From positions 1-64,000 of the IMG/VR virus record IMGVR_UViG_3300034025_000053: a stretch of 64,000 nucleotides of DNA; one strand, written 5' to 3'. Numbering within the stretch: the first letter of the stretch is position 1; each line of letters opens with the position of its first letter. The position numbers and the translations under genes were made by a program. Shown here piece after piece: positions 30,111 to 31,400 of the stretch. The notes under the pieces were generated by a model that was given only the letters and a program-made list of their open reading frames with translations, had not been told where the DNA came from and did not search any database. This DNA is from a virus.

Positions 30111-30530
30111 GAATTGCAGCGGAAAAAGAAGACTGAATGACTTCACCCTTCAAGACGGTCTCTAAATGGCTACGAAGGGTCAGAACCAGGAGCTGTGCAA
30201 TACCTGGCGCAATGCGAAACGGCGACACACTTAGATGGCTTACAGACCCTCTGTACATGGCGATGCACGCTGACAGCCGGCAAAGACCGCCGAGTGAGGC
30301 TTCGAAAGAGGCCCCACACGAAAGATGCCATGATGAAGTTGAAGCCCTGCCAGTAAGCGCTATCGACGTGCTGATGCCAGATAAGCTGATGAAACGGATT
30401 GGCGTCTTTCATGTGGTGAATGCTGCAAAGGAGGCAGAGGCGCAGAGGTATAAAAGTCTCGGGTGAAAGTTCAAGTAACGCCCGGATCTCATCTGGCACA
30501 GTGTACGCCGTGATTGAGCCGCAAGTGCAT
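30111..30530 (+). ncRNA. candidate structured RNA, unit B (paralogue of unit C)
   Basis: GCTTC-GAAA-GAGGC hairpin (30299-30312). 17-bp long-range helix pairs 30314-30330 with 30400-30416. Shares a 22-mer and a 12-mer with unit C. Confidence 0.45.
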
Positions 30531-30567
30531 GTTCCACTATAGGGTTCGATCCCCTCGCACCACTTCA
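30531..30567 (+). pseudogene. isolated tRNA 3'-half-like fragment (T arm plus 3' acceptor strand)
   Basis: TAGGG-TTCGATC-CCCTC followed by GCACCAC, with no matching 5' half in the expected position. Confidence 0.3.
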
Positions 30568-30568
30568 G

Positions 30569-30586
30569 TTCGTCGTGATGGCAGCC
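30569..30586 (+). promoter_or_regulatory. CGTCGTGAT motif copy in the RNA island
   Basis: ttCGTCGTGATggcagcc, upstream of the 30613 ORF and the tRNA block. Confidence 0.35.
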
Positions 30587-30612
30587 TGAAACCTGCCCTT
30601 CTGGGAGGTATC

Positions 30613-30765
30613 ATGGCCACAGTAACAACCCGTCCTAGTCCGCAGCAGGTTCGCGATTGGCTGGCGCAGCGCCTGGTATCACCAGCGCCGCCGCCGACGC
30701 CGCAGGAAGTACGGCGGCAGCTGGGATGGGAATTGATCGGGCGTGCGCAGGAGTGCACGCGGTAA
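30613..30765 (+). CDS. small hypothetical protein (50 aa)
   Basis: ATG at 30613 preceded by GGGAGG. Internal start of track ORF 30514..30765. Confidence 0.4.
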   Translation: MATVTTRPSPQQVRDWLAQRLVSPAPPPTPQEVRRQLGWELIGRAQECTR

Positions 30766-30770
30766 AGTTT

Positions 30771-30846
30771 GGCGGTGTGGAGCAGTGGTCAGCTCGGCGG
30801 TCTCATAAGCCGCAGGTCGGTGGTTCAAATCCATCCACCGCAACCA
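30771..30846 (+). tRNA. initiator-like tRNA-Met (anticodon CAT)
   Basis: Cloverleaf very close to E. coli tRNA-fMet as recalled: TG-GAGC..GCTC with A11:U24, CTCATAA loop, AGGTC, TTCAAAT, ..CCGCA-A-CCA. A 1:72 mismatch (G.A) is present. Confidence 0.85.
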
Positions 30847-30854
30847 GTTTCAAC

Positions 30855-30928
30855 GGGTCCCAGCTTAGGGAAGCAGCAGGTCTCCAAAGCCTCGCATGGA
30901 TATGGTTCGATGCCATAGGGACTCGCCA
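30855..30928 (+). tRNA. tRNA-Trp-like (anticodon CCA) with a reduced D arm
   Basis: GGGTCCC/GGGACTC acceptor, GGT-CTCCAAA-GCC anticodon arm, TATGG-TTCGATG-CCATA, G-CCA. The D region is only 15 nt and the variable region is 7 nt. Confidence 0.55.
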
Positions 30929-30935
30929 GTTTCAT

Positions 30936-31011
30936 TGTCGTGTAGCTCAGACGGTAGAGCATCGGACTCATAATCCGCCGGTCGCTGGTTCGATACCAGC
31001 CACGACGACCA
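30936..31011 (+). tRNA. tRNA with anticodon CAT (elongator Met or lysidine-dependent Ile2)
   Basis: TGTCGTG/CACGACG acceptor, TA-GCTC-AGACGGTA-GAGC, TCGGA-CTCATAA-TCCGC, GCTGG-TTCGATA-CCAGC, A-CCA. Confidence 0.85.
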
Positions 31012-31016
31012 GTATT

Positions 31017-31087
31017 GCCCTGGGCGTGGGCCGCTAGCCGGATTTGAGGCCGGAAGTGGCAGGGTTCGATTCCCTGTAGGGGCGCCA
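31017..31087 (+). tRNA. tRNA-like element, non-canonical (71 nt)
   Basis: Good T arm CAGGG-TTCGATT-CCCTG and G-CCA end. Weak acceptor and a short D region. The only consistent anticodon stem (CCGG/CCGG) leaves an 8-nt loop ATTTGAGG. Confidence 0.35.
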
Positions 31088-31400
31088 GAATGTTGCTTCG
31101 AAAGAGGCTCCACACGCGAGCCTTCGGATAATGAATACAGCTACTACACGTAGGTTTGGCCTCGGTGGTAGTTGACCCAAACGGGCCGAAGGTATCGCGT
31201 GTGGTGAATGCGTAGTGATGATGCGCAAGGAATGGCCGGCCGCTGAAAGAGGCACCGAGGCGAATGGGGCGCCCGTTACCACTCCGCCCGCGAGGGATTG
31301 TACAAATATCGGAATTCAGCAAGCCGGGATCATCTCCGGCCACCACAACCGCAGTCCGAGGTTCGGCGGGATACAAATTCCTCGGGCCAACAAGCCACAA
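31088..31400 (+). ncRNA. candidate structured RNA, unit C (paralogue of unit B)
   Basis: GCTTC-GAAA-GAGGC (31095-31108). Helix pairs 31110-31127 with 31186-31204 (10 bp + 7 bp). The frame equivalent to the unit B ORF has stops. Confidence 0.4.

Follow-up and report, generated by a model that had tools for sequence, protein, structure and literature searches.

What are the two similar units that lie among the transfer RNA (tRNA) genes of IMG/VR virus record IMGVR_UViG_3300034025_000053? The stretch analysed here, called the window below, covers positions 1 to 64,000 of that record and contains a tRNA island of 2.3 kb (about 29080-31406) with three units, A, B and C. An earlier note, made from the sequence, had described B and C as structured RNAs, and on this point the description holds: they are paralogous and non-coding, and a long-range helix is kept in both while its sequence changes. 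The helix is real, but it makes up just the 5' leader hairpin (P1) of a larger module. P1 closes a variable domain and is followed by a tRNA-shaped core that begins in its 3' arm. The conserved, functional-looking part is found mostly outside the interval flagged earlier, 3' of the helix (30410-30566 in B; 31198-31349 in C). As a whole explanation we find it fairly probable that B and C are paralogous non-coding modules, encoded on the plus strand together with the phage tRNAs, and that they carry a proposed tRNA-mimicking processing signal.

The primary observations on the repeats were all reproduced. The window contains exactly two copies of the 22-mer GCTTCGAAAGAGGCYCCACACG (30299-30320 and 31095-31116), and none appeared in 100 shuffles. 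The similarity extends to 29 nucleotides at 86% identity, and the pairwise BLAST E-value of this first block is 2.7e-6. A repeat search also recovers the 12-mer TGTGGTGAATGC at 30412 and 31200. The two blocks are collinear in B and C, with a spacing of 113 and 105 nucleotides, respectively. In unit B the helix 30314-30330/30400-30416 has 17 pairs with one C.A mismatch and one G.U, while in unit C positions 31110-31119 pair with 31195-31204 and 31121-31127 with 31186-31192; both helices are present in the minimum free energy (MFE) folds. Units A and B start with CAGAATTGCAGC directly after the 3' end of a tRNA-like element (29582) and of tRNA-Glu (30109). Unit C starts with CCAGAATG at 31086, again after a tRNA-like element, and the CCAGAAT repeat is recovered by the repeat search. 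An exact search with the 22-mer gave no match in IMG/VR, in 241 million metagenome records or in 185,579 species genomes. As no close relative carrying both B and C was found, the compensation in the helix is read between paralogues and not between orthologues. With blastn the whole island matches only through its tRNAs among 50,697 phage records. The folding energies of the single sequences are ordinary (z = -1.4 for B, -2.4 for C and +0.5 for A), and the case for structure must therefore be comparative, not thermodynamic.

Before turning to the structure, the possibility of a protein has to be considered. Unit B contains, as reported earlier, an open reading frame (ORF) of 109 codons, 30137-30466, and the C-terminal half of its translation looks superficially protein-like, so that the repeats could be protein repeats. 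The frame is closed in unit C, and in the homologous block of a related phage locus, L023, it stops after 23 codons. The substitutions in this block are not codon-like. The ORF has no match in Pfam or PHROG, and it overlaps P1 and the start of the core, elements that are non-coding in hundreds of phages and occur there in every reading-frame context. The GC content also falls from 0.65-0.70 in the flanking genes to 0.53-0.58 within the island. We regard a protein gene at this place as extremely improbable. The earlier statement that the island has essentially no credible coding was nevertheless too strong, since the 50-codon ORF 30613-30765 is conserved as a protein in L026, the closest relative (portal protein 87% identical). 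Its counterpart there is 10629-10790, with the shared block PPP[T/S]P[Q/E]EVRRQLGWE, and it has no Pfam or PHROG match.

A recurrent grammar was read in L023, L030, L026 and Aeromonas phage ST4: a long hairpin, GGUGAAUG, a hairpin GCGYAG..AUGCGC and, further downstream, GCCGG..CCGGC with CACC. The core of the module is closed by the stem NNNGGUG/CACCNNN, which is effectively 7 base pairs (bp) long, the next two outer positions being mostly unpaired. The 5' closing strand is followed by an AAU linker (2-3 nucleotides), the 5-bp hairpin 1 with the consensus GCGCA-GGCUGA-UGCGC, a variable insert of about 10-150 nucleotides at the place of the anticodon arm, and the 5-bp hairpin 2, (A)AGCCGG-AGAUCAGCA-CCGGC, which joins the 3' closing strand without a gap. 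The two hairpin loops are complementary and can form a 5-bp Watson-Crick kissing pair, GCUGA/UCAGC. In unit C all these parts are found: the closing stem UGUGGUG (31200-31206) with CACCACA (31341-31347), AAU (31207-31209), hairpin 1 (31210-31226, GCGUA..UGCGC), an insert of 94 nucleotides and hairpin 2 (31323-31340, GCCGG..CCGGC). The kissing pair is GAUGA (31217-31221) with UCAUC (31330-31334), in which both sides differ from the consensus. We built a covariance model, R1, from 35 full-length IMG/VR elements, with the window sequence excluded. R1 detects the core 31198-31349 with 49.9 bits (E 3.9e-11), its sole match in the 64-kb window. Unit C is a clear member of this kissing-type family.

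The base pairs of the family are supported by covariation. In alignment A1, which holds 65 distinct cores, 95.4% of the cells are paired compared with 87.5% after shuffling, and 12 pairs are changed on both sides; none of 500 shuffles reached the observed values. In alignment A3, made independently from 60 R1 matches, the paired fraction is 98.9% compared with 88.5%, and 13 of 17 pairs are changed on both sides. The covariation is 0.290 compared with 0.097 (again reached by none of 500 shuffles), and all slid controls collapse. Both alignments are biased towards structure, A1 because its extraction demanded pairing and A3 because it was fitted to the model. The test on A1 was therefore repeated with the 3' anchor set by sequence only, and the five flanking nucleotides then pair at 3.94 of 5 positions, compared with 2.51 +/- 0.14 for shuffled partners (maximum 3.08 in 2000 shuffles). 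Across the family, both sides are changed in three of the five base pairs of the kissing pair. The informative outliers show covariation of this helix, with GAUGA/UCAUC in the window, GCGA/UCGC in L023, ACUGA/UCAGU in L064 and UUGC/GCAA in L123. Single-sided changes are mostly G.U on the strand of the element, and all 15 elements with a tRNA within 1 kb lie on the strand of that tRNA. The folded molecule is therefore RNA in this orientation.

The leader hairpin belongs to the family as well. Pairing of the ten nucleotides that precede GGUG with a segment 30 or more nucleotides upstream is found in 70% of 105 related elements (median span 84 nucleotides), compared with 13% of control windows, so the long-range helix is a genuine, sequence-variable feature of the family. 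The 3' arm of P1 shares 4-5 nucleotides with the 5' strand of the closing stem, both in the window (30410-30418 and 31198-31206) and generally in the family, as in L072, L066 and L086. The window's CGUGUGGUG has CCACACG as its upstream and CACCACA as its downstream partner, and in the lambdoid class the same pentamer serves as the upstream and the downstream partner, ACAAC...GUUGUGGUG...CACCACAAC. Judged from these complementarities, the base of P1 and the closing stem would be mutually exclusive, or branch-migrating, at the junction; the two helices may alternate, or both may form in a shortened, stacked arrangement.

Two forms of the core were found. P1 and the downstream flanks are identical in phage HK75 and in L072, the canonical example of the family. 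In the stretch from GGUGAA to CCGGYCGCCACA, HK75 contains GCUC-AAUGGC-GAGC, which resembles a D arm and has GG in its loop, together with the canonical T arm GCCGG-UUCGAUU-CCGGC, whereas L072 contains the kissing hairpins between the same flanks. The two core forms are therefore interchangeable. The T-loop type is present in 88 IMG/VR contigs, with the T arm within 250 nucleotides in 87 of them. In 23 of the 24 distinct forms the T arm lies about 79 nucleotides downstream and has a covarying stem, and the strand directly after it pairs with 7 to 9 of 9 positions of the 5' flank. The MFE fold of the HK75 core is a cloverleaf-like junction in which a D-like arm, two central arms and the T arm are joined to a closing stem of 7 bp. 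The family is predicted to be tRNA-shaped, with an elbow made either by a GG D-like loop and a UUCGAUY T-loop or by the kissing pair.

The window probably holds one copy of each type next to each other, unit B being the T-loop type in a degenerate form. Two points are absent from the earlier note: the 12-mer TGTGGTGAATGC is the start of the tRNA-shaped core, and an orphan T-loop at 30543 belongs to unit B. The core of B, 30410-30566, is the next-best R1 match in the island when the filters are switched off, with 8.6 bits and E 0.16, which is not significant by itself; it is also recovered by a scan for GGUG-A.. with a T arm and a matching 3' strand, which recovers HK75 too. Its closing stem is GUGGUG (30413-30418) with CACCAC (30558-30563), followed by AAU (30419-30421) and a D-like hairpin, CUGC (30423-30426), loop AAAGGAG, GCAG (30434-30437). 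A T-arm-like element, AGGG-UUCGAUC-CCCU (30541-30555), replaces hairpin 2. The paralogy of B and C is clear from their 5' parts, but the core of B differs.

Unit B is a diverged and possibly decaying copy. One may go further and consider B, C and four degenerate tRNA-like sequences of the island as decaying remnants of tRNA or tRNA-like genes without a present function in this phage. Four sub-threshold tRNA-like sequences do lie beside three intact tRNAs, the core of B is imperfect, and unit C scores 49.9 bits compared with 60-83 for typical members. In the closest relative, L026, all versions are divergent; they share the CCACACG...CGUGUGGUG helix, and R1 detects none of them. Unit C has, however, retained every helix, including the kissing pair, where the change is on both sides, and the 17-bp P1 is kept in both units by entirely different sequences. 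The family overall is under strong structural constraint, and we consider mere decay very unlikely.

The family is widespread: its pattern GGTGAATGCGYAG-N(2-9)-ATGCGC is present in at least 120 IMG/VR contigs. With blastn the canonical core is found in 189 deposited phage records (Escherichia, Klebsiella, Salmonella, Acinetobacter and others), in which it is mostly unannotated. Among 5426 complete E. coli genomes, 1366 carry it, and PGAP leaves its place unannotated. In the species genomes (596 Gb) about 70 chance matches to the pattern are expected according to our own estimate, and the matches there were therefore filtered with R1, which confirms at least about 50 strong loci in Gamma-, Beta- and some Alphaproteobacteria: the taxa are Enterobacterales, Burkholderiales, Nitrosomonas, Gallionella, Pseudoxanthomonas, Moraxellaceae, Marinobacterium and some Alphaproteobacteria. 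A few core-bearing metagenome-assembled genomes are assigned to other phyla (Geobacteraceae, Coriobacteriia, Phycisphaerales). Among the relatives of the window phage, copies are found in ST4, L008, L009, L011, L013, L023 and PHB04. Several genomes and phages have two kissing-type copies that lie a few hundred nucleotides to a few kb apart, much like units B and C in the window: L218 (Superficieibacter), L230 with L262 (Pantoea, same contig), L008 and L009.

The family also reaches the lambdoid late leader. The HK75 copy is located downstream of the annotated tR' terminator and ahead of the holin gene. Lambda (NC_001416, 44788-44941; L182) has the same P1 hairpin with a diverged core in its late leader, unannotated, partly under 'orf-64' and beside the lysis genes. 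R1 gives no detection of the lambda copy. The closing stem of its core is GUUGUGCUG/CAGCACAAC, with GGUG/CACC altered on both sides.

Does the family belong to a class already known? Rfam 15 was scanned at E <= 10 for 28900-31800, L072 and HK75, and at the gathering threshold for the whole window and 12 canonical loci. On the island, the scan at E <= 10 gave only tRNA-level matches, and the canonical members have no match (12 loci at the gathering threshold, L072 and HK75 also at E <= 10). The proximity of tRNAs, the permuted transfer-messenger RNA (tmRNA) genes in the islands of relatives and the orphan T-loop at 30543 would suit a known large or catalytic RNA, such as a group I intron in a split tRNA, GOLLD, ROOL, HEARO, RNase P RNA, tmRNA, YrlA or a self-cleaving ribozyme. 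Since all 4227 models of Rfam 15 give nothing beyond tRNA-level matches, the only others being weak ones of the T arm to tmRNA models (10-12 bits), we find this highly improbable. A degenerate two-piece tmRNA was considered separately and rejected: relatives do encode a permuted tmRNA, but the units have no plausible tag frame and no model match. The earlier note had compared the units with GOLLD and ROOL without assigning them to a class; the lack of a class is borne out by Rfam, whereas the RNA is not a giant one but a module of about 100-250 nucleotides.

In a full-text literature search, using the core sequences and descriptions of lambdoid late-leader or tRNA-like elements, no earlier account was found. 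A preprint on the Pas/STnc100 prophage small RNAs (sRNAs) was considered as one and set aside, as it concerns other RNAs. According to Rfam 15, the PGAP annotation and the searchable literature the family is apparently undescribed; it may nevertheless appear in older literature or in large candidate catalogues.

The surroundings of the elements are diverse. Some occur downstream of Q/tR' with the holin gene next, others behind cI-like or RecT-like genes, ahead of the small terminase gene or within tRNA/tmRNA islands, and there is no consistent neighbouring protein gene. A strict linkage to tRNAs was rejected, as only 15 of 120 elements, among the matches listed, have a tRNA within 1 kb. An intrinsic terminator is found within 120 nucleotides of 18% of the elements and of 8% of the controls, and with so few terminators the idea of a stand-alone sRNA was rejected too.

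Our best guess, drawn from the shape, is that the core would act as a tRNA-mimicking processing and stabilising signal. The core would mimic the acceptor/T-arm stack and the elbow of a tRNA and be recognised by the tRNA-processing machinery of the host. The 5' edge of the closing stem would then be the cleavage site of RNase P, and enzymes that trim 3' ends might act as well. Long phage transcripts would in this way be cut at defined points, as they are by tRNAs, with the upstream fragment capped by the P1 hairpin and the downstream RNA starting with a base-paired 5' end that would resist decay. Processing by RNase P is favoured by the contiguous 7 + 5 bp geometry, the exchange of elbow designs and the co-orientation with tRNAs. 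A U directly precedes the closing stem in 80 of 121 elements (66%) and an A directly follows it in 62 (51%), counts that ignore kinship; this bias lends weak support to RNase P processing. Phage RNAs matured by RNase P are known, namely phi80 M3, P4 CI and P1/P7 C4 (PMC5499578, PMC11143913).

Several points weigh against this explanation. Neither ARAGORN (relaxed, introns allowed) nor the Rfam tRNA model calls a tRNA on the cores of B and C or on HK75, no CCA is encoded after the closing stem, and tRNAs are close to only the minority of elements given above. In unit B, apart from the insignificant R1 score, the T stem has 4 pairs with 2 spacer nucleotides, and the MFE fold forms the closing stem and the D-like hairpin with the T arm absent. 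The structural bias of A1 and A3 belongs here too. The loop and linker sequences are 92-95% identical across unrelated phages, and such near-invariance exceeds the need of a mere processing signal and hints at a specific protein or RNA partner. Finally, with the overlap of P1 and the closing stem the helices compete, which looks more like a switch than a static signal.

The last two points each lead to a different explanation. The conservation of loops and linkers across unrelated phages and hosts suits a specific partner better than a generic cut site, and the released tRNA-shaped RNA might be a putative mimic or decoy, acting in trans on a factor that recognises the tRNA elbow and acceptor stack. 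Candidates would be a tRNA-targeting defence nuclease, a tRNA-modifying or CCA-adding enzyme, a Ro/Rsr-like protein or the ribosome, and phage or host tRNAs would thereby be protected or the cell reprogrammed. Across its many settings (behind Q/tR', a cI-like or a RecT-like gene, or ahead of the small terminase gene) the element behaves as a self-contained accessory cassette. The RNA islands of this phage group contain it alongside tRNAs, permuted tmRNA and host-like sRNAs, and the excess of terminators over the controls resembles stand-alone sRNAs. Most copies are, however, without their own terminator, no partner protein is consistently encoded nearby, and the anticodon arm, the usual reading site of tRNA-targeting nucleases, is the variable part here. 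We consider a decoy rather unlikely.

The competition of helices could instead be the function itself, a folding switch in cis that would pass, during synthesis of the RNA, from a 'P1 closed' to a 'core closed' state, perhaps controlled by a ligand or factor, which would set the termination, stability or translation of downstream late genes. The overlap of the P1 3' arm with the closing stem is conserved, with the same pentamer as both partners in the lambdoid class and both partners of CGUGUGGUG in the window. The element also lies in operon leaders, as between tR' and the holin gene in HK75 and lambda, and unit C ends 58 nucleotides before ORF 31407. Nevertheless, the downstream genes and their distances are inconsistent, and no terminator or ribosome-binding site is systematically sequestered. 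P1 is absent in 30% of the elements, in which the closing stem still covaries, and the junction, where a ligand pocket would be, holds the variable insert of 10-150 nucleotides. A switch is in our opinion distinctly improbable, and the processing and stabilising signal remains the explanation that we favour.

A broader claim can be made only tentatively, and we hold it to be possible rather than probable: that this is a very common class of tRNA-shaped RNA in phages of Proteobacteria, with two interchangeable elbow forms, unrecognised before and exploiting the tRNA-recognising machinery of the host, either for punctuation or as a decoy. If true, about 25% of the complete E. coli genomes contain an unnamed structured RNA, and the same RNA is found in many enterobacterial, Burkholderiales and other proteobacterial prophages and in a textbook lambdoid late-gene leader. 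It would also mean that the L-shape of tRNA can be built in two ways, by a T-loop/D-loop contact or by a 5-bp kissing pair, which evolution swaps as cassettes within identical flanks. The processing explanation provides a testable hypothesis for how phages punctuate and stabilise their late and tRNA-island transcripts via the RNase P of the host; in the alternative case there would be an RNA decoy aimed at host factors that recognise tRNA. For annotation, the family would account for a large part of the 'empty' DNA of tRNA islands and late leaders in phages.

The features of the island are listed in Table 1. The phage portal protein of the window is encoded by ORF 27046-28779 (Pfam PF04860, phrog_12) and is 66-71% identical to those of 90-95-kb myoviruses, i.e. 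Aeromonas ST4, Pseudomonas Dolphis, Touem01 and Jeremy, and Bordetella PHB04. The island is flanked by the portal gene and a 100-codon ORF on one side, and on the other by a 381-codon ORF and then a 1512-aa helicase. The corresponding junction is a short gap in ST4 and Dolphis and holds 3 kb of other genes in PHB04, and it is therefore a variable insertion point. Both ARAGORN and Rfam call three tRNAs (Glu, Met, Met). The T-loop motif GGTTCRAWNCC occurs seven times, all on the plus strand and clustered at 29558-31073, while 0.5 occurrences are expected over the whole window; the island therefore also has four degenerate tRNA-like sequences. Three of these are free-standing, have good T arms, fall below the calling thresholds and are interleaved with the intact tRNAs.

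Table 1. Features of the tRNA island of the window, in order of position.
Feature	Position	Strand	Basis
Degenerate tRNA-like element, then TCA-GAATTGCAGC	29506..29579	+	Rfam tRNA 25.1 bits (threshold 29); ARAGORN only if relaxed; T-loop GGTTCGAATCC
Unit A, non-coding domain between tRNA-like element and tRNA-Glu	29582..30034	+	Core block GGGAAATGCGAAAGTCCCGCTGCGGGATTTAGCC at about 29766-29800
tRNA-Glu (UUC), encoded CCA then GAATTGCAGC	30035..30110	+	ARAGORN; Rfam 46.9 bits
Unit B 5' domain with conserved hairpin 30130-30181	30111..30298	+	86% identity to L023 12456-12507
GAAA-tetraloop hairpin before P1 of unit B, within the shared 22-mer	30299..30312	+	Repeat search, sequence
Unit B leader hairpin P1 (arms 30314-30330, 30400-30416)	30314..30416	+	Sequence reading; MFE fold
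Unit B core, probably degenerate T-loop type	30410..30566	+	R1 8.6 bits; T-arm scan
50-codon ORF with ribosome-binding site, not part of the RNA modules	30613..30765	+	Protein conserved in L026
tRNA-Met (CAU)	30771..30846	+	ARAGORN, Rfam
Degenerate tRNA-like element	30855..30928	+	ARAGORN Trp/CCA only at relaxed threshold; T-loop motif
tRNA-Met (CAU)	30936..31011	+	ARAGORN, Rfam
Degenerate tRNA-like element ending GCCA, then GAATG	31017..31087	+	mascRNA model 26.3 bits, E 0.02, sub-threshold; T-loop
GAAA-tetraloop hairpin before P1 of unit C	31095..31108	+	Repeat search
Unit C leader hairpin P1 (31110-31127 with 31186-31204)	31110..31204	+	Sequence reading; MFE fold
Unit C core, kissing type	31198..31349	+	R1 49.9 bits, E 3.9e-11
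67-codon ORF with ribosome-binding site, directly after unit C	31407..31610	+	Weak phrog_24528 match

The core block of unit A, GGGAAATGCGAAAGTCCCGCTGCGGGATTTAGCC, is also present in L023 (12097-12141) and L030 (6339-6433), and a motif search of IMG/VR found no further contig. Unit A, which has no Rfam match, is therefore a lineage-restricted block outside the widespread family. Compared with L023, the 5' domain of unit B shows one compensatory pair and one change from G-C to G-U. An intrinsic terminator is found at 31701-31724, 3' of the 67-codon ORF. At four sites in two phages an encoded tRNA 3' end (CCA or UCA) is directly followed by GAAU(U/G), namely at 29580-29593, 30108-30120 and 31085-31092 in the window and at 11609-11618 in L023, and this may be a conserved 3'-processing site. 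The non-coding stretch 29085-29422, 3' of the 100-codon ORF, is 73% identical to L026 10032-10384. It contains a hairpin at about 29108-29130, CCGACAG-GGGCUAAA-CUGUCGG, which is CCGGCAG-GGGCUAAG-CUGCCGG in L026, a compensatory change. After this hairpin follows an AT-rich, promoter-like stretch (29281-29340), in which a simple promoter scan made no call.

Among the portal-anchored IMG/VR loci, many relatives have non-coding islands at or near the same site, in which short conserved blocks form a mosaic. A permuted (two-piece) tmRNA beside tRNAs was seen in L029 (12993-13377), L030 (6676-7096), L024 (9475-9725) and L055, which is PHB04 (745-1116, minus strand). ARAGORN reports these as tmRNA*, Rfam RF04321 matches with 92-106 bits, and the tag peptides include ANDSSFLMAANA; the window has none. 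Just 3' of the tmRNA in L030, positions 7211-7299 match the anti-hemB sRNA of Burkholderia (RF02837, 54.7 bits, above threshold), which looks like a host-like sRNA in a phage RNA island. The island of ST4 (L001; 5810-6900, minus strand, unannotated) contains a family member at 6150-6255 (67 bits) and a sub-threshold STnc100-like match at 6704-6812 (39 bits). Pieces of 70-95 nucleotides in this island are 82-94% identical to unannotated DNA of unrelated Aeromonas phages of 42-138 kb. In L023, 12550-13450 holds at least four tandem modules, each a long helix followed by GAUGGUGAA(U/G)G, within one island. One of them is followed by a tRNA-Cys (ACA) called by ARAGORN at 13124-13196, and one is 92% identical to L030 7057-7140.

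Compared with known systems, GOLLD and ROOL are likewise structured RNAs associated with phages and often encoded close to tRNA genes. Their size is far greater and their architectures are different, and Rfam gives no match for the module. The stable RNAs C and D of phage T4 (species 1 and 2) are non-tRNA RNAs located among the phage tRNA genes and released from a tRNA precursor. They have no sequence relation to the units, as in the blastn search of the phage records only the tRNAs of the island matched. YrlA, as reportedly described by Chen et al. in 2014, has a long imperfect stem and a tRNA-like domain with T and D arms, and is said to occur in phages too. In YrlA the tRNA-like domain is internal and the ends form the long stem, whereas here the hairpin lies 5' of a self-closed core; there is no Rfam match at E <= 10 and no rsr gene was seen nearby.

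The mascRNA and the related 3' elements of MALAT1 and MEN-beta (RF01684) show a tRNA-like fold within a longer transcript that serves as an RNase P signal, which is only proposed here. These elements are eukaryotic, and the cores of B and C do not match RF01684; the sub-threshold mascRNA match in the island (31017-31083, 26.3 bits) is to a neighbouring element. The module has no match to the Rfam C4 family. The phage RNAs M3, CI and C4 are small RNAs cut from leader transcripts by the RNase P of the host, again a likeness that is only proposed for our module (PMC5499578, PMC11143913). P4 CI has complementary partners both upstream and downstream, resembling the overlap of P1 and the closing stem. 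Unlike the module, M3, CI and C4 are described as hairpin-like substrates without a T-loop equivalent (PMC5499578), M3 being compared by description only.

The canonical tRNA (RF00005) shares with the module the 7-bp closing stem, the 2-3 linker nucleotides before the first hairpin, and the 5-bp last hairpin that runs without a gap into the 3' strand. In both, the loops of the first and last hairpins interact, and the T-loop type has the canonical GGUUCGAUUCC T arm with a GG D-like loop. Elements near tRNAs also share their strand. The module differs from the canonical tRNA by the lack of a recognisable anticodon arm, in place of which there is an insert of 10-150 nucleotides (about 79 in the T-loop type), and of an encoded CCA, and its cores are invisible to ARAGORN and Rfam. 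In the majority form the contact between D-loop and T-loop is exchanged for the 5-bp kissing pair.

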